From Shigella phage ESh19: DNA of 64,000 nucleotides. The DNA lies in the sequence record ON528729; one strand, given 5' to 3'. Both the position numbers and the translations under genes were made by a program. Shown here in pieces: positions 1 through 14,770 of this stretch. The notes under the pieces are model-generated. The model searched no databases, had not been told where the DNA came from, and saw nothing but the letters and a program-made list of their open reading frames with translations. Positions within the stretch are counted from its first letter, which is position 1. Each line of letters opens with the position of its first letter.

Positions 1-283
1 AATCTTTCAGGTTTATATCTTGAATTGATTCTAGAAGTATGTCATAATCACTGATTAACTTAAAATCACCTTCTAGAATGTTATCAATCCGATATGTCTC
101 TGCTTTAAATCGAAAGCTCATCTCTAAGCGTTTCAATTGTTCTAAGCTTAAACGCTCTAGAAAGCCACGTACAAGGTTTATTTTTAAATCCCTTGATAGT
201 GCCTTATTAGCTATACTGTGCGCTTGTAAGGCTTTATAGAGCGCCACAATAGAGATAAAAATTGCAGCGTATGTGATTAACAT
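1..283 (-). CDS. hypothetical membrane protein, 5' part only (gene runs off the window start)
   Basis: ATG at 283 on minus strand overlaps the stop of the upstream gene (ATGTTAA); frame open to window edge; hydrophobic N-terminus MLITYAAIFISIVALY; not in ORF track because truncated. Confidence 0.4.
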   Translation of the reverse strand, partial: MLITYAAIFISIVALYKALQAHSIANKALSRDLKINLVRGFLERLSLEQLKRLEMSFRFKAETYRIDNILEGDFKLISDYDILLESIQDINLKD

Positions 284-573
284 TTGTTTTTACCTTTGTG
301 GAATAGTTTACCAGTGTGACTAATTTCATATGAATCAACCATATCTCTAGTAGTCTTAATCGATGACTTATTAGTGTTATCATATATATCAACCTGAAGC
401 AATGGTTTTTTGTATTCTTTGCAAAAGTTCCATACACAAATTATTACTTCTTTTTTGTTAATCTTTCCATGATACCACTCTACGGCTTCAGAAGTACGGC
501 GCATGGATTCAATGAATTGAATATTACTTAATAGCTGGCTTAATTTAGTTCTAACGTTTGCGGCAATAAACAT
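277..573 (-). CDS. hypothetical early protein (98 aa)
   Basis: ORF preceded by conserved cassette ending in GGAGA SD; member of co-oriented small-gene operon. Confidence 0.55.
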   Translation of the reverse strand: MFIAANVRTKLSQLLSNIQFIESMRRTSEAVEWYHGKINKKEVIICVWNFCKEYKKPLLQVDIYDNTNKSSIKTTRDMVDSYEISHTGKLFHKGKNKC

Positions 574-657
574 TTTAGGTTCTCCAGTTTAGGATTGTTT
601 GTAAAGCTCTTTATCTGGGGCTATCTTATCAACTTGATAACCCCATGTAAAGCACTT
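574..657 (-). promoter_or_regulatory. conserved intergenic cassette, copy A (GGGG..CCCC hairpin, TTTACA box, conserved 5'UTR AACAATCCTAAACTGGAGA)
   Basis: near-identical flanks shared with copies at 1171-1262, 1521-1611, 1993-2076; fills whole intergenic gap; SD GGAGA 6-9 nt before ATG. Confidence 0.6.
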
Positions 658-1170
658 TTAGATATTAAAGATATTCATAACAGAATCTTTCAAGGCTTCT
701 AAACGCTCCATTACTTCAGATTCTCCATCGGAGTTCGACACTTCCTCTTCTAATCGTGAATCTAAATCTTCCCCGTCAAGATAGCACCAATCGAAGCCAT
801 AAGCAAGAGAAAAGCTATTTAATACTGTATTACCTTCTTTATCTTCTACCTTTGCAAATAGTACATAGCTATTAGCTTCTAAATCCCTTTGCAATTCATC
901 TTGTAAGCTCTTGTAAGCCTCTATAGATGGATTTTCACGGCCTTGTTTAGCATAATCACTCATCAATTGTGAAAGGCTGTAATGCTGTGGAATTGCATAT
1001 TTGTACCCGTTACGCTCTGGATTTTTAAGTTTGATTGTAACCCCGCCTTTGTGCTCATCGGTAAACTTCCAATTTTCCACACAATGGGATGCTTCACAAG
1101 CATTAACAGCTTCATAGATGATGGTGAATTTTTCTTTCTGAACTTCAAAGGTAGCTTCAACGTATGACAT
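658..1170 (-). CDS. hypothetical early protein (170 aa, acidic C-terminus)
   Basis: ORF with cassette-derived SD upstream; no recognisable motif. Confidence 0.55.
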   Translation of the reverse strand: MSYVEATFEVQKEKFTIIYEAVNACEASHCVENWKFTDEHKGGVTIKLKNPERNGYKYAIPQHYSLSQLMSDYAKQGRENPSIEAYKSLQDELQRDLEANSYVLFAKVEDKEGNTVLNSFSLAYGFDWCYLDGEDLDSRLEEEVSNSDGESEVMERLEALKDSVMNIFNI

Positions 1171-1262
1171 TTTTAGATTCTCCAGTTTAGGACTATTGGT
1201 TAGTAAAGCTCTTTATCTGGGGCTTAAGATACTAGCTTTTAAGCCCCATGTAAAGCACTTTA
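1171..1262 (-). promoter_or_regulatory. conserved intergenic cassette, copy B
   Basis: hairpin GGGGCTTAA-loop-TTAAGCCCC (1220-1248) flanked by CATGGGG and CCCCAGATAAAGAGCTTTAC conserved arms. Confidence 0.6.
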
Positions 1263-1520
1263 TTAGATTAAATTGTCAGTTAATGATAAGTGCATTTTAT
1301 AGCCTTTCTTTGTGTAGACATTAGTTCTACCAATTGCTCTTACACCTTTGAAAAGGTCATAGGAACTACGCTTCAGAGTAAGATGCTTATCACATTTCAC
1401 GCCCCATCTTACAGCAGATTCTTTTCCGTTGTCAACCACTTTACCATTTAGTTTTTTAGCAGTTGCGCGAGCGTCATCACGAGATTTTGCAGATACAATG
1501 ATGTTTTTGATAGTAGCCAT
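1263..1520 (-). CDS. hypothetical early protein (85 aa, basic)
   Basis: ORF between cassette copies. Confidence 0.5.
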   Translation of the reverse strand: MATIKNIIVSAKSRDDARATAKKLNGKVVDNGKESAVRWGVKCDKHLTLKRSSYDLFKGVRAIGRTNVYTKKGYKMHLSLTDNLI

Positions 1521-1611
1521 TTTTGATACTCCAGTTTAGGTTGATTGTTTGTAAAGCTCTTTATCTGGGGCTTATCTTATCTAACTATAAACCCCATGTA
1601 AAGGACTTTAT
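1521..1611 (-). promoter_or_regulatory. conserved intergenic cassette, copy C
   Basis: same conserved arms, divergent hairpin core. Confidence 0.6.
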
Positions 1612-1992
1612 TTAGTTAATTTTGAAAACTGTAACGTAGCCGTCACTACCAATTGTTTGAGATACTCCAGCTTTCTCTACATCATACCCCATTTTATCAA
1701 GATGGTACATTGCATCTTCATACCCATATTTTCCGCCTTGATAGCGTCTTTTTTCGCATCGTATCACAGTTTTACCACGTCCTGCAATAGCATTTATGAT
1801 AGCTTTTTCACCGGATAATGTACCGTCAAGCATAGTAGCTTTGTAGTGGTTAATACGGTTACCATTAACATCATACTTAAAATTGTAAGCGTGAACAACA
1901 ATTATTTTTCCTTTGAAGTTTTCTTTCATAGTTTCCTCTAAGATACTACGAAAGTTTTCTTTGTTGATAAATTTAGGCGCACGATATTTCAT
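1612..1992 (-). CDS. hypothetical early protein (126 aa)
   Basis: ORF; ATG 8 nt downstream of GGAGA of cassette D. Confidence 0.55.
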   Translation of the reverse strand: MKYRAPKFINKENFRSILEETMKENFKGKIIVVHAYNFKYDVNGNRINHYKATMLDGTLSGEKAIINAIAGRGKTVIRCEKRRYQGGKYGYEDAMYHLDKMGYDVEKAGVSQTIGSDGYVTVFKIN

Positions 1993-2076
1993 TTCAGATT
2001 CTCCAGTTTAGGATTGTTGGTAAAGCTCTTTATCTGGGGCTTAAGATACTAGCTTTTAAGCCCCATGTAAAGTACT
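1993..2076 (-). promoter_or_regulatory. conserved intergenic cassette, copy D
   Basis: hairpin GGGGCTTAAAAGCTAGTATCTTAAGCCCC plus conserved arms. Confidence 0.6.
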
Positions 2077-2238
2077 TTATGCAATAATTTTTATAAAATC
2101 TTTCATGGTTATTTTATCGCCATTTGTAAGGGCTACGCAAGCGTTACCCATAGCAGATTTATAGAGATAGAAGACTTTACCAATTTTTGGGTATCCGTCT
2201 AAATCTTTGTACTGTATTACATCGTTTTCTTTAATCAT
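2077..2238 (-). CDS. small hypothetical protein (53 aa; below ORF-track cutoff)
   Basis: hand-translated MIKENDVIQYKDLDGYPKIGKVFYLYKSAMGNACVALTNGDKITMKDFIKIIA; SD AAGAAGG 7 nt upstream; fills gap between 2251-2457 gene and cassette D. Confidence 0.35.
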   Translation of the reverse strand: MIKENDVIQYKDLDGYPKIGKVFYLYKSAMGNACVALTNGDKITMKDFIKIIA

Positions 2239-2250
2239 TGTCAAGCCTTC

Positions 2251-2457
2251 TTAAACGTTGTAATAATAAATTGCTGTATGTCTTGTAAACTGTCTTGTAT
2301 GATTTGTCAAGTAACAATCTGACCTGATTGATGTATCAACATATTCGTCAAAATCCTTTTCTGAAATACGTTGCCAAACATCACAAATTAGCATATAGAA
2401 ACGACGCTTATTTGTTTTGTTGTTGTCAACAATCATTAACTCACGTTGATATAACAT
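2251..2457 (-). CDS. hypothetical early protein (68 aa), first gene of operon
   Basis: ORF; upstream partial cassette (2458-2490) supplies the conserved 5'UTR and SD. Confidence 0.5.
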   Translation of the reverse strand: MLYQRELMIVDNNKTNKRRFYMLICDVWQRISEKDFDEYVDTSIRSDCYLTNHTRQFTRHTAIYYYNV

Positions 2458-2507
2458 TTTAGATTCTCCAGTTTAGGATTGTTGGGATGTTTCCCGTTGA
2501 TGCAAAT

Positions 2508-2535
2508 ACTATAAGACTGGATTTATGAAGTCAAC
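2508..2535 (-). promoter_or_regulatory. candidate sigma70-type promoter of the small-gene operon
   Basis: minus strand GTTGAC(T)-N15/16-TATAGT about 50 nt upstream of ATG at 2457. Confidence 0.4.
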
Positions 2536-2708
2536 AAAATTTTTAAAAATATTTTTGATGTTTCGTGAATAGAACGCACGTATGCGGATACACTAAAACA
2601 GGAATCTAGTCAAGAATTATTTTTGAGTTCTCTACAAATTTTTCTCTTGACTTTTGGGAGGAAGGGGAGTAAGAGGGGATGGTGGGGCTGGCTTCCTACA
2701 GCTACCTA

Positions 2709-2934
2709 CCTGCACAATTCGAAAATGAATTTTCCCTTTGGAGTCCAACTGCATCTGCACAAATTGAAAATGAAAAATCCCTTTGGAGTCTAGACCTGCA
2801 CAAATTTGAAATGAATTTTCCCTTTGGAGTTCAGCTAAAGAAATCTGTCCAGAGTTCTATGCAACTATACCTGCACAAATTTAAAATGAAAAAGCCCTCC
2901 TTACCTGAGATTTTAAACTCAAACTTTGGAGGGC
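2709..2934. repeat. degenerate direct-repeat array (4 copies of ~37 bp unit CCTGCACAAATTnGAAAATGAAnnnnnCCCTTTGGAGT)
   Basis: copies start at 2709, 2754, 2795, 2870; the fourth carries a 25 bp insertion; non-coding (indels break frame). Confidence 0.7.
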
Positions 2935-2935
2935 T
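2893..2935 (-). terminator. possible long-loop terminator after macrodomain gene
   Basis: GCCCTCC...GGAGGGC inverted repeat followed on minus strand by T-run; loop is long (25 nt) so weak. Confidence 0.25.
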
Positions 2936-2960
2936 TGTCTATGTCTATGTAGGTGACTTA

Positions 2961-3755
2961 TTAGTTACGTGCTTCAACATAGTTTACGTTTTCATGTGTG
3001 ATATAATCTTCTGCAAACTCTTCTGTAGTCGAATTGATATACACACTTGCATCATCACCAAACGTTACCGCTCTGTGGTGGTGACCTTGTAACGGGTGGG
3101 TAACTTGAGCGTTACTTCGATTGTACTTCTCAACCGGAGGGTAACTGGTGTGTACCTTGCCATTACGCTTCACCTTGAGGGTAACTTTATCCTTGCCTAC
3201 CACAGCAACACCATCAAAATATTGAGGCTCACTGAAGTTCTCCCAACCAGTAACAGGACTAGTCAACTGACTGTACATCTTATCTTCATAGACATACATA
3301 TATACGTCAACATCTTTCATAGTCTGATTAATAATGGACAGCACAGCCATACTATCAAGACCACCAATCCCTGCACAAATCATAGGAAGCCCAACTTTCT
3401 TAAGTTGGTTGACTTTGCAGTAATTATTCAGACGCTGCAAAGCTGCTTCTAAAGCATTGTACCGTGCATCTTTGCCAGTGATAACCTGAGTATAAAGGTT
3501 AGCAATCCGACCCTGCTTAAAACGTGCTACAGAGATGTTACCAAGCATTAGGTGCTTAGGGTTATGATTTTCACCACCTACTGTAGCATAAACCTCAGCG
3601 TCAGTTTCATAAGCTTTTGGGTAGCGTTTAGCAATTGTTGCTGCGATACCTGAACCCATCAAGTTCATGCAGTTACAACCGTGACCAATGATATCAAACT
3701 TCTTACCATCAAAGTCTTTAAAGATATCACCTTTAATAATTTTTACGATACCCAT
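2961..3755 (-). CDS. macrodomain protein, TARG1/DarG-like ADP-ribose hydrolase fold, with extra C-terminal domain
   Basis: KGDIF..DIIGHGCNCMNLMGSGIAATIAKRY matches TARG1-type macrodomain signature (catalytic Lys in KGD, G-rich phosphate loop); start re-set to ATG 3755 (MGIVKII), since track start 3812 overlaps the upstream gene and lacks an SD. Confidence 0.6.
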   Translation of the reverse strand: MGIVKIIKGDIFKDFDGKKFDIIGHGCNCMNLMGSGIAATIAKRYPKAYETDAEVYATVGGENHNPKHLMLGNISVARFKQGRIANLYTQVITGKDARYNALEAALQRLNNYCKVNQLKKVGLPMICAGIGGLDSMAVLSIINQTMKDVDVYMYVYEDKMYSQLTSPVTGWENFSEPQYFDGVAVVGKDKVTLKVKRNGKVHTSYPPVEKYNRSNAQVTHPLQGHHHRAVTFGDDASVYINSTTEEFAEDYITHENVNYVEARN

Positions 3756-3756
3756 A

Positions 3757-3957
3757 TTAGTAATGCTCCCAACGTTCGTTATCTTCAGAGGGTTTAACTC
3801 GGTTACCTTCATGGTCTACCCATAAAGCACCACAGCCTTCACAGATTACTGGCATTGCTGAACCAGCTTCAAACTCTGCTTTTGTAAAGAGACCTTTTAA
3901 GTCTCCTGTATCTTTTCCAAACATCTCAACAGAACACTTAGTGCAGAAATCAGCCAT
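3757..3957 (-). CDS. small zinc-ribbon protein (66 aa)
   Basis: CxxC ... CxxC pairs (CTKCS, CEGCG). Confidence 0.5.
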   Translation of the reverse strand: MADFCTKCSVEMFGKDTGDLKGLFTKAEFEAGSAMPVICEGCGALWVDHEGNRVKPSEDNERWEHY

Positions 3958-7195: not shown

Positions 7196-7721
7196 ATTTT
7201 ACCTTTTTAATGTTTGTTGCAAACTCACATTGAGCCAGCAGTTTCATGTTATTGTACACATCTTGAGAGTATTGTCTAGCCTTTGGAATCTTGTATTTGT
7301 AACCAGCATTATAAGAAGCTAGGACACGCTTCATAGAGTACTTTCCATCTGGGTTACCATGAACCTTAGTCCAGAATAATAGCTCCTTATGAGCCTCTTT
7401 CGCTGAGTAATGGAAGTCGCTTACTAGCTTCTTCTTAGCAACCTTTGGAGATACCTTGTTACGCTTTACAACAGTCTTCAAGTGATTTTGGAAAACACCA
7501 TAATCATGAGTCTTTTTATTTTCTAACATGACACCTAATTGTGACTCTTGTAAGGCTATAGCTGCTAAAGGGATTCCCCAACCTTTTCCCATCTGTCCTT
7601 CGCCATAGTCATATGCTTTTAACATATTAACTTTCTGGCTGATTGTAAGCTCTGGACAGTCAGACGCTGTAGCTAAATGTGCTGTAAAGAATAAGCACAA
7701 ACCTAAAACAAATTTCTTCAT
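7173..7721 (-). CDS. secreted lytic transglycosylase (SLT-domain), probable signal-peptide endolysin
   Basis: signal peptide MKKFVLGLCLFFTAHLATA; SLT motifs AIALQES and SYNAGY; start set to ATG 7721 with AGGAG SD. Confidence 0.6.
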   Translation of the reverse strand: MKKFVLGLCLFFTAHLATASDCPELTISQKVNMLKAYDYGEGQMGKGWGIPLAAIALQESQLGVMLENKKTHDYGVFQNHLKTVVKRNKVSPKVAKKKLVSDFHYSAKEAHKELLFWTKVHGNPDGKYSMKRVLASYNAGYKYKIPKARQYSQDVYNNMKLLAQCEFATNIKKVKYERIKTI

Positions 7722-7822: not shown

Positions 7823-8935
7823 TTAGACTTCACGTTTACGCTGAGAAATCAGTTCACCAGCAGTGCCTACAACTACGTGGAGTGCTTCTGAACCATCCCA
7901 CTCTTTGATGATTTCACGGCGACTATTTACAATCGCTGCAACTTCATAACGGGAAGCTCGCATTTTCATGTCGTTGTAGTCAGTTGGTACTGAAACAACA
8001 TCACGAGGATGAACACGAACTTTCAGGATAGTGTCACCAGAGAAGCTAGTTACATAATCCCAAGCACCAACGTGCAGACCCTGAGAGCAGGTTACATGGC
8101 GGTTATTATCAACCATCCAACGTGGCATCTCTACAATGTTACCCAAATCATTTGGAACTTTGCAGGTACGAGAGTCAAACAGTTTACCACCACGAGTTGT
8201 GACTTTCTTCCAACCGATGATATAACCTTCTTCATCAATTTCAACATCGAGGTGTGATACGAAGCCCCAAAGTTGTTCTACAGAATCTTTTGATGGGTTT
8301 TCCATCAGTTTTTCGAAGAATGCAATCAGTCGAACAAAACCATTATCACCTTTCTTCATCATATCCAGAATACGGTCTACCAGAGTTGAGCGCATCTGAA
8401 CAGCACCGTAATACAGGTTGTCGCCTTTGATGGTTACAGCACCCTGAGTGAAGTTCTCAATAGACTTGCGAATGTTCATCAGTTCAAAAGCTTTCTTGTA
8501 CTCACCTGAAACAACAGCCATTACAATATCAGTGTAGTTAGGGTGAGTTGACTCAACAATCTCAGACTCTGCACCGAAAGTCATGATAACAGAATCACCA
8601 GTAATCATGTACTCAATCTGGCTGTTATTCTGCATTGCTTCATGCAGAGCATTTACAGGTTCTGCTTTGACTGCTTCTTTAACAGCTTTTGCAACAGGCT
8701 TCTGCTTAGATACTTTCTTGGTCGCTTTAGCTTTCTTTGCAATATCTTTCAGAGTCTTTGCAGGTTTTGCTTTGGTTTTCCCTGACAGCAGCGTTGCTTC
8801 ATGACGCTCTACAGCACGACCTACCGAACGGGTTGAAGTGTTATACTTCAGAGCGATTGCAGTTTTGGTCAGTTTACCTTCTTTAACCAGTGCATAGATT
8901 TCTGCGTCGATTTGTGCTTTAGTCTTAGTAGTCAT
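7823..8935 (-). CDS. rIIB: rIIB protein
   Basis: C-terminal block CSQGLHVGAWDY..KVRVHPRDVVSVPTDYNDMKMR and central LVDRILDMMKKGDNGF match remembered T4 rIIB; directly downstream of rIIA. Confidence 0.8.
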   Translation of the reverse strand: MTTKTKAQIDAEIYALVKEGKLTKTAIALKYNTSTRSVGRAVERHEATLLSGKTKAKPAKTLKDIAKKAKATKKVSKQKPVAKAVKEAVKAEPVNALHEAMQNNSQIEYMITGDSVIMTFGAESEIVESTHPNYTDIVMAVVSGEYKKAFELMNIRKSIENFTQGAVTIKGDNLYYGAVQMRSTLVDRILDMMKKGDNGFVRLIAFFEKLMENPSKDSVEQLWGFVSHLDVEIDEEGYIIGWKKVTTRGGKLFDSRTCKVPNDLGNIVEMPRWMVDNNRHVTCSQGLHVGAWDYVTSFSGDTILKVRVHPRDVVSVPTDYNDMKMRASRYEVAAIVNSRREIIKEWDGSEALHVVVGTAGELISQRKREV

Positions 8936-11999: not shown

Positions 12000-13826
12000 T
12001 TAAAGTTGCTTGTCAATAGTATTTCGAACATCACGCAGGTTAACGTAACCATAAGGTTGCGAGTTACTAAATACCAGTTTCAAAGCACTATGACAATTGT
12101 CAATTGCACCTTCAAACTCTGCAAAGCCAAAACCATCTACAGCTACTAGCTTGTCACCATCCCACATAGGGACGACTCCACCAAAAGCAGACTTCTTAAG
12201 ACCACTGTCAGTTTTAGGGTCTTTAGCCAGCATAATTTCTTGACCATCCATCTGTGCAAGAGTTGCTTTAACAGCAAATGCAAATGTGTCACGAGTCAGG
12301 TACTGATAGGTGTATGAGCCTACACCAAACACTACGTTAGAACTTGCAAAACCTTTATCAGCAAGACGTGACAGAATCTCATTAGCCCTTTCCAGAGTGA
12401 TAGAATCACCGTAGATTAGTCCAATGTGCTCATCCAGTACTTTGTACCCTTTGGAGTTAACAGTGCCACCAAAGATGTTATACAGCGTGTGGATAGCTCC
12501 ATCAATTTCTGCTGTTAACATACGCTTCACAGTAAACTGTCCAGTTTTCTGAGCGGTAATCAGGTTGATTGTATCAATATAATCAAAATCTTCATTTTCA
12601 GCAACCATCTCATATCCTTCAGAGATTAACCAAGCAGAGAACCCAAAACCAATATCAGACATTTCACAATTCAAGATTGTGTCATGCAGATGGGTATTAT
12701 CTGGTGCAAGACCTTTCATGTGCTTGTAGAACATTGACTTAGCAGTTTCCCATTCAACGGCTTTGTAACCTGTAACAATGTGAACAGGGTCTCCAGAGTC
12801 TGGACGAATTACCAACTTACCATCACGATTCAGAATTACATTACGTAGCTCTGGCAGAATCTCTGTAACAGTACGCCAGAAGTTGTAAGTATCTGAAACA
12901 ACACTTGCAATACCAGTTGGATATACGTCTACCAGTAAATGCTCAAAGGTTTTAACCTCACCACGCCAACGTTTTGCATCCAGCAAGCTATCAGACCGCA
13001 TGATGTACTGTGAATGAATATCTTCCTCTGACAAGTCTTTCATATTCCATGAAATGTTTGCGCACATCACAGAGTGTTCAGTAGCTGGTACAGAGTTGCC
13101 GATATCACTTACTTCCATAAACTGACCATAAGAACGTTTAGCAGTGTAGACAGCAGGGAAGCTGTCAGTACCTTTAAAGCTTGTCAGGTGTCCTACTGCG
13201 TTAAACGCATCATCTGTGAAGCCAGACATGCCACGCATTGCAAAGTCATGACACTGCCAAGGTAAATGGGAGTCGTTGTCACAGGTTAAATCAGCCCATT
13301 GCTTACAAATACGTTTGTAATGCAGTGCAATAGTTGCAATCGTACAAGCTTTCCAGATTTCAGCAGAGAAAGCATCTTCAAGGTAACCAGCTACCCAATG
13401 GAATCCCTCTACAGTATTTTTGAAGACAATCATCGGGACACGCATAGGGACAATTGTACCTTCCTCTACAGAGTAGACTTCAACAGGTAGGTAACCCAAG
13501 TCATGAAGTTCTTCCCAATGTTGACGACCAATAGTATCTGCACCAAGGACACCATTCATGATTTCCAAGATTTCGTCAATGGCTTCTTTCTTATCACGTT
13601 CAAAGAACGTTGCATTCCAGTGGTCTACCAGATAGTCTTTTACAAAACGCTGAATACCAAAAGCTACAACACCATCAATCTCTAACGGAGAGTTAAACCA
13701 TTTATCTCCACGAGGTGTTAAGTTCAACATAAGATACTGTGTAGCATCTGGATACTGATAGATATGACCCGCTTTATAAGCATCTGCATTAAGACCTGCT
13801 GGTACTGCATAGATTGATTTAGTCAT
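12000..13826 (-). CDS. nadV: nicotinamide phosphoribosyltransferase-family enzyme (Nampt/NadV-like; possibly nicotinamide ADP-ribose transferase)
   Basis: blocks YKAGHIYQYP, HDFAMRG..SFKGTDS, PATEHS, VVSDTYNFW, IRPDSGDP, GVGSYTYQYLTRDT align with eukaryotic/bacterial Nampt; 608 aa, longer than canonical ~490 aa. Confidence 0.8.
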   Translation of the reverse strand: MTKSIYAVPAGLNADAYKAGHIYQYPDATQYLMLNLTPRGDKWFNSPLEIDGVVAFGIQRFVKDYLVDHWNATFFERDKKEAIDEILEIMNGVLGADTIGRQHWEELHDLGYLPVEVYSVEEGTIVPMRVPMIVFKNTVEGFHWVAGYLEDAFSAEIWKACTIATIALHYKRICKQWADLTCDNDSHLPWQCHDFAMRGMSGFTDDAFNAVGHLTSFKGTDSFPAVYTAKRSYGQFMEVSDIGNSVPATEHSVMCANISWNMKDLSEEDIHSQYIMRSDSLLDAKRWRGEVKTFEHLLVDVYPTGIASVVSDTYNFWRTVTEILPELRNVILNRDGKLVIRPDSGDPVHIVTGYKAVEWETAKSMFYKHMKGLAPDNTHLHDTILNCEMSDIGFGFSAWLISEGYEMVAENEDFDYIDTINLITAQKTGQFTVKRMLTAEIDGAIHTLYNIFGGTVNSKGYKVLDEHIGLIYGDSITLERANEILSRLADKGFASSNVVFGVGSYTYQYLTRDTFAFAVKATLAQMDGQEIMLAKDPKTDSGLKKSAFGGVVPMWDGDKLVAVDGFGFAEFEGAIDNCHSALKLVFSNSQPYGYVNLRDVRNTIDKQL

Positions 13827-13846
13827 CTTTTTATCTCTCTCAAAGT

Positions 13847-13862
13847 GGGGCTTTTCAGCCCC
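13847..13862 (-). other. GNRA-tetraloop hairpin between Prs-like and Nampt-like genes (identical to 8986-9001)
   Basis: GGGGCTTTTCAGCCCC exact repeat. Confidence 0.5.
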
Positions 13863-13870
13863 TAAAGTTT

Positions 13871-14770
13871 TTATTCAATATTTGCTACGGTCACTTGTGA
13901 GAAGTGGGAAAGACCACGGTCTTTTTCATCCCCTAGTGAGTTTGTAGTGTAGATATGGTCGATACCATTGTCAAGGAGATTTTCAACACCTTTAGAGAAA
14001 ATCCCATGAGTGACATACAGTTCTACACGTTCTGCTCCAGCTTCACGAAGATACTTTGCAGCCTCGATAAATGTTCGACCACCGTCACAGATATCATCCA
14101 GAATCATGACGGTCTTACCTGTCAAGTCTACATCATCAAGGATTCGCATACCAGTGATTTCACCAGTTTTCAGGTTTCGTACCTTAGCCATTGTAATGTA
14201 AGGTTTCTCAACCTCTTTAGCAGCCTCTTCAGTCTTCTTAGCTGCACCTGCATCTGGAGCCACTAAGTAATCAATGCGTGGGTCACTTGCAAAGTGGACT
14301 GCTGCCTCTTTTTGAGGGAGGTTGTAGAAGCTCTTAAACAAATTCTCTGCAACATTACTGTGAGTATCCAGAGCACATACTGCATCGAACTCCATAGCAT
14401 TTACAAGATTTGCAAAGACTTTAAGTGCTGCTGCATCACCTTTAAACATGTGACGGTCATAGCGAGCATTTGGTAAGAATCCAAAGACAACAGTTTTCAG
14501 GGTTGCTTTCTGAGGAATCAAACGGTCAATTGCTTCTTTAGCCATAGCCAATGCAAAGAGTGTGTCTTTGTCATAACCTTGTACAGTGAATATTACGTTT
14601 TCAATCTTACCAGCAGCATGTTCAGCAAAGTCTACTAAGTCTTCTGAGAAATTACCACCAATCTCCCCAGAAGGGAACTGGATAATGTTGAAGGTCTCTT
14701 GGTGAGTACCTTTGGAATTTGAATTAATCAGGACTCGAATAGTAGTTTTCATAATATCTCTCTCAGTCAA
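13871..14770 (-). CDS. ribose-phosphate pyrophosphokinase-family enzyme (Prs-like; possibly ADP-ribose pyrophosphokinase)
   Basis: PNARYDRH and VMILDDICDGGRTF resemble Prs divalent-cation and PRPP-binding loops; adjacent to Nampt-like gene. Confidence 0.75.
   Translation of the reverse strand: MTERDIMKTTIRVLINSNSKGTHQETFNIIQFPSGEIGGNFSEDLVDFAEHAAGKIENVIFTVQGYDKDTLFALAMAKEAIDRLIPQKATLKTVVFGFLPNARYDRHMFKGDAAALKVFANLVNAMEFDAVCALDTHSNVAENLFKSFYNLPQKEAAVHFASDPRIDYLVAPDAGAAKKTEEAAKEVEKPYITMAKVRNLKTGEITGMRILDDVDLTGKTVMILDDICDGGRTFIEAAKYLREAGAERVELYVTHGIFSKGVENLLDNGIDHIYTTNSLGDEKDRGLSHFSQVTVANIE

Follow-up and report, generated by a model that had tools for sequence, protein, structure and literature searches.

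Probable promoter, stem-loop and leader cassettes between the small early genes of a Shigella Mooglevirus and its Ounavirinae relatives

Repeated cassettes between small early genes of Shigella phage ESh19 (record ON528729) are probably self-contained early-expression modules resembling the promoter-early stem-loops (PeSLs) of T4-like phages, in which a promoter, an RNA hairpin and a translational leader form three overlapping layers. The cassettes share a common anatomy and display layer-specific patterns of conservation, covariation between stem partners and footprints of recombination, from which we infer promoter activity, a start site and a role for the hairpin in RNA. The window, i.e., the whole 64,000-nt stretch that was analysed, belongs to a Mooglevirus (Ounavirinae) with approximately 97% identity to Shigella phage Sf19.

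The original prediction held that one element of about 85 bp fills every gap between six consecutive small minus-strand genes. Four copies were found on the minus strand in four consecutive intergenic gaps (g18/g3, g3/g8, g8/g0, and g0/g1), with lengths of 84-92 nt and a variant leader in copies 2 and 3, where the leader diverges somewhat; g7 and g18 are separated by 12 nt with no cassette, and g1 is overlapped by the next gene (ATG 281-283), which leaves the window at position 1. A Pfam search with the six operon proteins gave no match and their PHROG families are all of unknown function, in keeping with the predicted lack of recognizable motifs; the accompanying label of host-takeover or anti-defence genes is therefore a guess. 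The features are as follows, each gene with its PHROG family.

2506-2534, minus strand: type A (first) operon promoter, sigma-70-like, predicted; -35 TTGACT 2529-2534, 17-nt spacer, -10 TAGTAT 2506-2511
2484-2495, minus strand: small hairpin GGGAaacaTCCC, from folding, where the type A transcript is predicted to begin
2458-2483, minus strand: standard leader copy 1, AACAATCCTAAACTGGAGAATCTAAA, with SD GGAG, preceding the ATG at 2455-2457
2251-2457, minus strand: gene g7, 68 aa, phrog_5293
2077-2238, minus strand: gene g18, 53 aa, phrog_14219
1993-2076, minus strand: cassette B1; hairpin 2021-2079, leader CCTAAACTGGAG 2001-2012; -35 TTTACA 2066-2071, -10 TATCTT 2043-2048; predicted start near A2035
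1612-1992, minus strand: gene g3, 126 aa, phrog_4495
1521-1611, minus strand: cassette B2; hairpin 1552-1610, leader 1529-1540; -35 TTTACA 1597-1602, -10 TAAGAT 1574-1579
1263-1520, minus strand: gene g8, 85 aa, phrog_5089
1171-1262, minus strand: cassette B3; hairpin 1204-1262, leader 1180-1191; -35 TTTACA 1249-1254, -10 TATCTT 1226-1231
658-1170, minus strand: gene g0, 170 aa, phrog_4190
574-657, minus strand: cassette B4; hairpin 603-658, leader 582-593; -35 TTTACA 646-651, TG-extended -10 TAAGAT 623-628
277-573, minus strand: gene g1, 98 aa, phrog_4401

The two arms bear out the conservation claimed for them. A sequence search of the 64 kb found each exactly four times, always on the minus strand and nowhere else, with CCCCAGATAAAGAGCTTTAC at 601-620, 1203-1222, 1551-1570, and 2020-2039 and CTTTACATGGGG at 641-652, 1244-1255, 1592-1603, and 2061-2072; the matches expected from shuffles are 0.00 and 0.17, respectively. 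The cores enclosed by the arms are identical in B1 and B3. The leader CCTAAACTGGAG has five copies (582, 1180, 1529, 2001, and 2466), each followed after 8-9 nt by ATG, such that the SD and start codon end the cassette at its 3' side, and the sharing of a leader, as proposed, is confirmed. The fifth copy, at 2466, does follow a different promoter-like sequence as had been noted; this was given as GTTGAC-N16-TATAGT but is better read one register off, as TTGACT-N17-TAGTAT at 2506-2534. Leader copy 1 of the window had been described in phage Mordin as a 26-bp repeat.

TTTACA-N17-TA...T was found, as predicted, in all four window cassettes. Among 76 distinct cassette variants, T at -12 and A at -11 are invariant (76/76 each) and T at -7 is nearly so (75/76), positions -10 to -8 varying freely between them; G occupies -14 in 65 of 76, TG occurs at -15/-14 in 38 of 76, and the spacer is 17 nt in 71 of 76. 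CTTTACA and GATAAAGAG served as search anchors, and their own invariance is partly by construction. AT content upstream of the cassette boxes is 75% against a background of 62%. A simple promoter scan gave 16 matches versus 11 +/- 3.4 for background, i.e., near the background rate, and the case for promoters therefore rests on conservation. The Sf19 operon has 16 leaders, eight behind hairpin cassettes and eight behind plain promoters of the form TTGACA/TTGCAA-N17-TAnnnT, and all 16 have a sigma-70-like promoter 28-40 nt upstream. Relative to ATCAAC and the leader, the window's type A promoter has the register of seven further TTGACA/TTGCAA-N17-TAnnnT promoters in Sf19. A loose regular expression for type A promoters yielded mostly noise, and obvious members alone were used. 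In Felix O1, ORFs 16 and 20, each located just 3' of a 57-bp repeat, peak 5 min after infection. A literature search for Ounavirinae or Felix O1 transcriptomes found none, and promoter activity and start sites are given here as predictions. At the level of sequence, these observations support the view that the cassettes carry a sigma-70-type promoter conservation pattern.

A hairpin had been placed between the arms. It is present, but the inverted repeat extends further out, with TAAAGTGCTTTACATGGGGCTTAA pairing with TTAAGCCCCAGATAAAGAGCTTTA to form an interrupted hairpin of 21 bp that includes the upstream stop codon (in B1, the TAA at 2077-2079). From the base, it consists of 6 bp, a mismatch, 5 bp, a 2x2 loop, 10 bp, and a terminal loop of 10-11 nt. 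When folded, as had been suggested, the four window cassettes gave energies of -24 to -28 kcal/mol with z of -3.8 to -5.2 (B1, -27.3 kcal/mol, z -4.0; B2, -23.9, z -3.75; B3, -27.9, z -4.0; B4, -27.4, z -5.2). Across the 76 variants, 94-96% of cells are paired, although these variants are phylogenetically related and homogenized by conversion, and independent events are far fewer than the counted cells. The covariation score was 0.126 versus 0.054 in shuffles (0/500 reached it) and at most 0.034 when the hairpin partners were slid. Changes on both sides of the stem include GC<->UA (66/10 and 59/10), UA<->AU, and others. An anchor-based count gave 137 G.U against 10 A.C pairs, an excess due mainly to three columns; this count is free of a gap that the MAFFT alignment misplaces in the 65-nt class, lowering pair counts for three columns. 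Together with the compensatory changes, the G.U excess indicates that the hairpin is selected in the sense RNA. The polyG...polyC stem-loop also occurs in other registers: it lies downstream of the -10 box in type A, and in phiEa21-4 it falls between the boxes or surrounds them. The Sf19 and Felix O1 positions homologous to the type A hairpin carry different GGGG...CCCC hairpins. An Rfam 15 covariance-model scan of positions 1-3300 gave nothing at E <= 1. Rather than marking a promoter, the invariant UA of the loop could be kept for an RNA-binding factor.

For comparison, the T7 RNase III sites (R0.3, R0.5, R1, R1.1, and R1.3) were folded. Both sets of hairpins are intercistronic, span about two helical turns, comprise a lower stem, an internal loop and an upper stem of approximately 10 bp, and lie 20-40 nt before the next SD-ATG. 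An RNase III site of this type is expected to present an interrupted duplex of some 20 bp or more between the cistrons of a read-through RNA, and the three stem segments of the cassette add up to 21 bp. The two sets share no sequence similarity, the terminal loop is 10-11 nt here versus 4-5, and the internal loop is 2x2 here versus about 4x5. The T7 annotation places minor E. coli promoters B and C next to or within RNase III sites; the major T7 promoters lie only upstream, whereas here each module seems to own one. On modelled structure, the cassette hairpin resembles the T7 sites more closely than an intrinsic terminator, and by analogy its processing by RNase III is plausible.

The closest overall parallel is with the PeSLs described for RB49/phi1, PST/T4, and nt-1/KVP40 (Arbiol et al., 2010, PMC2839356; Comeau et al., 2014, PMC4122927). 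Both systems consist of intergenic cassettes repeated among small ORFans in a plastic early region, and both present the same order of parts, namely stop codon, AT-rich stretch, sigma-70 -35/-10 boxes, GGGG...CCCC stem-loop, SD, and ATG. In each the stem-loop overlaps the boxes or lies downstream of them, its position defining several subclasses, and in each the cassettes are crossover points of gene indels between close relatives. The Ounavirinae are not T4-like, and the elements are likened to PeSLs by anatomy, with no claim of a shared lineage. The hairpin here is 11 bp longer and so takes in the -35 and -10 boxes, the stop codon and the start of the transcribed sequence, and the leader is a fixed sequence of about 26 nt. 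Promoter and terminator activities and mini-circles have been demonstrated for PeSLs, whereas the Ounavirinae cassette is known here from its sequence. For the 26-bp leader, the Mordin authors drew a comparison with the start-associated sequences (SAS) of cluster K mycobacteriophages, likewise a short conserved motif that contains an RBS and is repeated immediately before many start codons; the two are unrelated in sequence, host and phage group, and the motif here forms the 3' portion of a larger cassette of promoter and hairpin.

A search of related phages, which the original prediction had proposed, located the cassette at 1,432 places in 287 phage records, all Ounavirinae by name and including Felix O1 and Erwinia phiEa21-4. 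Taking the window and the Sf19 loci together as a whole genome, the copies are confined to the early operon. A pattern scan of viral contigs returned many single chance matches in unrelated contigs; those retained had a G-rich and a C-rich core, and all were in Ounavirinae contigs of 84-91 kb. A literature search for descriptions of these elements found two repeat listings alone. The Felix O1 paper gives a 57-bp direct repeat, CTTTACATGGGG...CCCCAGATAAAGAGCTTTACCACT, and a 39-bp TTGACA...ATCAAC repeat, and CCAACAATCCTAAACTGGAGAATCTA appears in the Mordin announcement; all three correspond to the elements described here. Both papers present them as direct repeats alone, and neither mentions a hairpin, a promoter, covariation or any tie to the shuffling of genes. 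The subfamily-wide spread of the cassettes, the presence of their parts in the literature, and the breakpoints of gene gain and loss that parallel PeSLs had all been missed by the original prediction.

Early-operon gene content differs among relatives. Compared with the window, Moogle, Felix O1, L039, and L031 have indels that end within cassettes, and the HSP overlaps at these indels are about 100 nt, equal to one cassette. Mordin has two tandem cassettes, and Michonne has one empty cassette and one duplicated gene. The orthologous site before g0 carries three different cores in the window, Sf19, and Sf13, which are approximately 96% identical phages. As read from these genome comparisons, the cassettes are breakpoints of gene gain and loss, and cores are swapped between positions. 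An apparent 1.3-kb insertion in Sf13, 3HA14, and ESh20 was rejected as an artefact that arose when BLAST pieces lying on downstream cassettes were merged into 4.6-kb places; the gene order of Sf13 is the same as that of Sf19.

Other readings of the cassettes can be weighed against these data. Were a single polycistronic early transcript produced, as in T7, the cassettes would be RNase III or stabilizer hairpins with leaders, and TTTACA-N17-TAnnnT would be incidental. The hairpin architecture, covariation and strand-specific G.U pairs, the likeness to the folded T7 sites, and a promoter scan without enrichment over shuffles would all fit. Such an arrangement is nonetheless unlikely, as T-12, A-11, and T-7 stay invariant while the rest of the loop and stem varies freely, TG is over-represented at -15/-14, and the boxes keep a fixed distance of 17 nt. 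Erwinia phage variants with the hairpin in other registers keep their -35 and -10 boxes. Moreover, plain near-consensus promoters alternate with cassettes at an equal distance from the same leader, indicating that the operon is clearly multi-promoter. It is also rather doubtful that the cassettes are canonical PeSLs, whose stem-loop would act as a terminator or attenuator insulating each promoter-gene module with no RNase involved. Published PeSL stem-loops lower lacZ expression as strongly as rrnB T1 (PMC2839356/PMC4122927), and the upper stem here is GC-rich (GGGG/CCCC) and lies just past the stop codon. Against this, no U-tract follows either the upper stem, where the sequence is GAUAAAGAGCUUUAC with the tail GAUAAAGAGC, or the full hairpin (CCAACAAUCC), and a terminator scan of the minus strand found no terminator. 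The AU-rich lower 11 bp, which a terminator would not need, are also under selection (L4 GC<->UA 59/10). With no U-tract and a loop of 10-11 nt, the reading as an intrinsic terminator was rejected; attenuation without a U-tract is conceivable, since PeSL stem-loops are reported to act as terminators.

An element acting in DNA, with the RNA hairpin irrelevant, is very unlikely. The arms TAAAGnGCTTTA and TAAAGAGCTTTA would then be palindromic repressor operators flanking the promoter, or else the inverted repeat would act as a recombination site or a cruciform. Taken alone, each arm reads as a near-palindrome in the sequence, the cassettes are recombination breakpoints, and a DNA-binding recombination factor acting at GGGG...CCCC was the subject of speculation by the PeSL authors (PMC2839356/PMC4122927). 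Yet a change of TAAAG to TAAAT in the 5' arm, accompanied by CTTTA to ATTTA in the 3' arm, keeps the pairing between arms and breaks both palindromes within them, and with 137 G.U against 10 A.C pairs the complementary strand would hold mismatches; no candidate repressor was identified. The arm TAAAGnnCTTTA was rejected as a repressor operator since covariation preserves inter-arm and not intra-arm pairing. The multiple copies, concerted evolution, core swapping, and empty and tandem copies might suggest a selfish or neutral dispersed repeat (REP- or MITE-like) that recombination has spread and that plays no part in expression, but this can scarcely be credited for an element in fixed register between stop and start codons, limited to one operon and one strand, and retained in phages from Escherichia to Erwinia, its TAnnnT intact and its stem changes compensatory.

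Under the preferred reading of PeSL-like modules, the original alternatives of a promoter or a processing/terminator module give way to both layers being present at once in the 76 variants, with the classical terminator set aside for lack of a U-tract. In the DNA, TTTACA, 17 bp and TAnnnT, often with an extended -10 TG and an AT-rich stretch upstream, would direct host RNA polymerase to start at about the A of CCCCAGAT, so that each gene or gene pair could be transcribed on its own; the predicted starts fall at about 2035, 1566, 1218, and 616 for the cassettes and at about 2499 for type A. In RNA, the same bases, joined by the preceding stop codon and the ~25 bases transcribed first, would form the 21-bp hairpin. 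As the cassette's own transcript would begin 3' of the upper stem, only read-through RNA from upstream could form the hairpin, which would thus mark the 3' end of the upstream message. By analogy with the T7 early intercistronic sites, its most likely role is in RNase III-type processing and/or 3' stabilization, preferred to intrinsic termination because there is no U-tract and the whole two-turn helix is kept by selection. Cleavage in the internal loop would leave processed RNA with a 5' leader nearly the same as that of primary transcripts, and the fixed CAACAATCCTAAACTGGAGAATCTAAA-ATG would provide every cistron with a common ribosome-binding region. As direct repeats of ~90 nt, the cassettes would be substrates for homologous recombination that could delete, insert, duplicate or convert gene modules. 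More tentatively, the cassette may be a doubly coded switch used throughout the Ounavirinae, in which an RNase III site and its embedded promoter yield one leader, that GGAG leader is the single target of a phage factor shutting off the early genes together, and the cassettes function as integrase-free 'attachment' repeats that exchange modules, possibly through mini-circles. If so, the mRNA of each early cistron would be identical and independently tunable whichever way it had been transcribed.

Felix O1-like phages have found wide use in typing and biocontrol. The temporal control of their transcription was stated to be unknown in the Felix O1 genome paper. The cassette reading gives a concrete map of early transcription units with testable start and processing sites, and accounts for the differing early gene sets of closely related phages. 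With a DNA signal and an RNA structure overlapping in one sequence, and each leaving its own mark of conservation, the cassette is a clean case of dual coding, and it could be a compact expression part in phage engineering. The idea arising from PeSLs, that regulatory cassettes act as recombination linkers, is carried over to phages that are not T4-like, suggesting convergence on one way of shuffling small host-takeover genes.

The cassettes occupy the beginning of the minus-strand operon of small genes, after the macro-domain gene (2961-3812) and its terminator; the operon leaves the window at position 1, and in Sf19 it goes on for ~7.5 kb. Over window positions 1-3300, identity is 96-97% to Shigella phages Sf19, Sf15, and Sf13 and 87-89% to Citrobacter phages Mordin and Moogle, all of which belong with the present phage to the genus Mooglevirus of the Felix O1-like subfamily Ounavirinae. 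As described, two conserved arms recur, with exactly four copies each, on the minus strand only and in this operon only (0 expected by chance), and the leader CCTAAACTGGAG is present in five copies in the window. The claim that the element fills every intergenic gap holds for four gaps but is a slight overstatement, since the 12-nt gap between genes g7 (2251-2457) and g18 (2077-2238) has no cassette.

Cassettes, leaders, and the separate predicted promoter in the window
1993-2076, minus strand, gap filled by cassette B1
1521-1611, minus strand, gap filled by cassette B2
1171-1262, minus strand, gap filled by cassette B3
574-657, minus strand, gap filled by cassette B4
582-593, minus strand, leader
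1180-1191, minus strand, leader
1529-1540, minus strand, leader
2001-2012, minus strand, leader
2466-2477, minus strand, leader (the fifth)
2506-2534, minus strand, promoter TTGACT-N17-TAGTAT ahead of the fifth leader, then a small GGGA/TCCC hairpin

The proposed inverted repeat is present and extends further than originally described. In RNA folding all four cassettes adopt the same structure (successive stems of 6, 5, and 10 bp, the first two separated by a 1x1 mismatch and the last two by a 2x2 internal loop, under a terminal loop of 10-11 nt) at -24 to -28 kcal/mol (z -3.8 to -5.2), and the upstream TAA stop codon lies within, or abuts, the stem base. Every leader variant carries a CCU that starts pairing distance from the SD, 5-7 nt ahead of it, and is able to pair with it, as in CCUAAACUGGAG, the Felix O1 leader CCUUAAACUAGGAG, and the phiEa21-4 leader CCCUUAUAAAGGAA; the weak 3-bp hairpin that folds may partially mask the SD or serve as a common target of a regulator.

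A 96-nt cassette query matched 1,432 places in 287 phage records, the carriers being Escherichia, Salmonella, Shigella, Citrobacter, and Erwinia phages of the Ounavirinae, including Felix O1 and phiEa21-4. Additional copies were gained by a pattern scan of IMG/VR using only the anchors CTTTACA and GATAAAGAG, in which the true cassettes were all within 84-91 kb contigs; after filtering, 76 distinct variants made up the set. Across the window and the Sf19 loci, which cover one whole genome, there are no leader or cassette copies outside the early operon.

A count of pairs that took the two anchors as its reference, with no fitting, had 95.6% of cells paired among the 76 variants compared with 33-56% for slid partners, although the variants are related and homogenized by conversion, so that independent events are far fewer than counted cells. 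Both-side changes occur at six pairs, including GGGG/CCCC to GGTG/CACC in the upper stem of Erwinia phages (66 GC, 10 UA) and TAAAG/CTTTA to TAAAT/ATTTA in the lower stem (59 GC, 10 UA). A MAFFT alignment gave 93.8% pairing and a covariation score of 0.126; shuffled alignments gave 0.054 +/- 0.005, with 0/500 as high, and slid ones scored no more than 0.034. G.U pairs outnumber A.C pairs by 137 to 10; this excess, which implies mismatches on the complementary strand, indicates that selection acts on the sense RNA. An operator site is disfavored as a reading of the repeat, since the lower-stem covariation preserves pairing between the arms and destroys palindromes within them.

The same bases carry a second pattern. 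TAnnnT, in 14 different hexamers, always stands 17 nt after TTTACA (18 in 5/76), with -12T and -11A in 76/76 variants and -7T in 75/76, while all four bases are used at -10 to -8. In addition, G occupies -14 in 65/76 and TG occupies -15/-14 in 38/76, and A+T content is 75% in the 22 nt preceding the -35 box compared with 62% in the same genomes. Judged from sequence, this is the pattern of a sigma-70 -10 element within an otherwise variable loop, which the hairpin alone would not explain. Transcription is predicted to start at the A of CCCCAGAT, and the cassette's own transcript would therefore be without the upper stem and unable to form the hairpin.

The hairpin would thus form only in RNA reading through from upstream and, on that account, would be part of that message's 3' end. 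It has no U-tract after it, and a terminator scan of the minus strand found no terminator; selection maintains both turns of the helix, down to the AU-rich lower 11 bp. Folded by the same procedure, the early RNase III sites of T7 consist of two helices, 7-8 bp below and 9-10 bp above an internal loop, and precede the next SD-ATG. RNase III-type processing and/or 3' stabilization is therefore favored, as an inference, over classical termination. Attenuation by the cassette hairpin is a live rival, as the promoter-early stem-loops (PeSLs) of T4-like phages behaved as strong terminators in reporter assays (Arbiol et al., 2010; Comeau et al., 2014).

The T7 annotation puts the minor E. coli promoters B and C next to or within early RNase III sites, a precedent for a promoter sharing its site with a processing hairpin. 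The annotated start of promoter C lies inside the hairpin of the gene 0.7/1 intergenic region, and that of promoter B ~36 nt downstream of the gene 0.4/0.5 intergenic hairpin (T7 1030-1100, 2698-2775); we take these hairpins to be RNase III sites R1 and R0.5.

The Sf19 early operon has 16 leader copies, eight behind hairpin cassettes (type B) and eight behind a plain near-consensus promoter (type A; TTGACA/TTGCAA-N17-TA(A/G)AGT), and therefore a sigma-70-like promoter stands 28-40 nt upstream of every standard leader. Downstream of seven of the eight plain promoters come ATCAAC, which is TTCAAC in one case, and a variable hairpin of the GGGG...CCCC form, placed at the predicted transcript 5' end. 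In Erwinia phage phiEa21-4 (10560-10655, 13060-13150, 15050-15440) there are further cassette classes with the hairpin in different registers, one of them TTGACA...GAGGGG-TTAAAAT-CCCCTC, in which the loop is the -10.

When genes and cassettes were mapped in 14 early operons, modules between cassettes proved to be present in some and absent from others. Moogle has a single cassette in place of window 1987-1263 (g3, cassette, g8), and its two alignments to the window share 97 nt of Moogle sequence, the expected trace of recombination between direct repeats. Overlaps of ~100 and ~114 nt accompany loss of g0 in relative L039 and of g8 in relative L031, respectively. Felix O1 is without g18-g3-g8, similarity restarting where the cassette before g0 begins. 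The common leader links g3 of L039 to a type A promoter. Mordin (2555-2663) has two hairpin cassettes in tandem, fused head-to-tail at ...GCTTTACCAA|CTTTACATGGGG. Citrobacter phage Michonne has a tandem duplicate of g8 (85 aa) and, on the reverse strand (~7354-7520), an "empty" complete cassette with a residual 9-codon mini-ORF (MLYMGFIVR), its ATG abutting the next cassette. At the orthologous site before g0, three different cores are found in the window, Sf19, and Sf13 (~96% identical phages). The window B3 core (1204-1262) is exactly its own B1 core (2021-2079), CTTAAAAGCTAGTATCTTAAG, and the opening codons of the 170-aa gene downstream also differ from those of Sf19 and Sf13, as if a conversion tract had arisen recently. 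Felixounavirus genomes repeat one core at several sites. Together with core swapping before g0, this points to gene conversion and concerted evolution.

Other features were seen around the operon. Four tandem ~37-45 nt repeats, each ending in TTCATTTnnAATTTGTGCAGGT, lie on the minus strand between the macro-domain gene terminator and the first early promoter (2700-2915) and could be a phage-specific promoter, iterons, or binding sites. A similar motif also occurs just after two further terminator-like hairpins of the window (~7785 and, weaker, ~11972). The array is kept in 3-4 copies in Sf19, Mordin, and Felix O1 (7988-8170), and as a GTGCATAG variant in phiEa21-4 (8546-8690). A minus-strand C-rich tract upstream of the early promoter (~2650-2690, ccagccccaccatcccctcttactccccttcctccc) is atypical for a 39% GC genome, and a small opposite-strand ORF is annotated there in relatives (Sf13 gp58, Mordin_126). 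Past the early operon, ~1.6 kb without annotated genes (Sf19 581-2259; Felix O1 12305-13928; outside the window) could hold a genome terminus or origin.

The Felix O1 genome paper lists parts of these elements, 57 and 39 bp long, among its direct repeats but does not remark on them, and describes temporal transcription control as unknown; in its RT-PCR table ORFs 16 and 20, each immediately 3' of a 57-bp repeat, are among the genes with a 5-min peak. The Mordin announcement called the 26-bp leader "reminiscent of start-associated sequences." Our literature search found no paper reading these repeats as hairpins or promoters, and no Ounavirinae transcriptome. The cassette is real, ancient within the Ounavirinae, and clearly functional, and is best described as PeSL-like, with a predicted promoter within a hairpin and then a standard leader. 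It matches the PeSLs of T4-like phages part for part and in evolutionary behavior, and the hairpin-register classes of phiEa21-4 mirror PeSL subclasses. An element of the PeSL kind is thus found in a phage lineage other than the T4-like phages, with a twist of its own compared with known PeSLs, a long RNA helix and a predicted promoter on the same bases.
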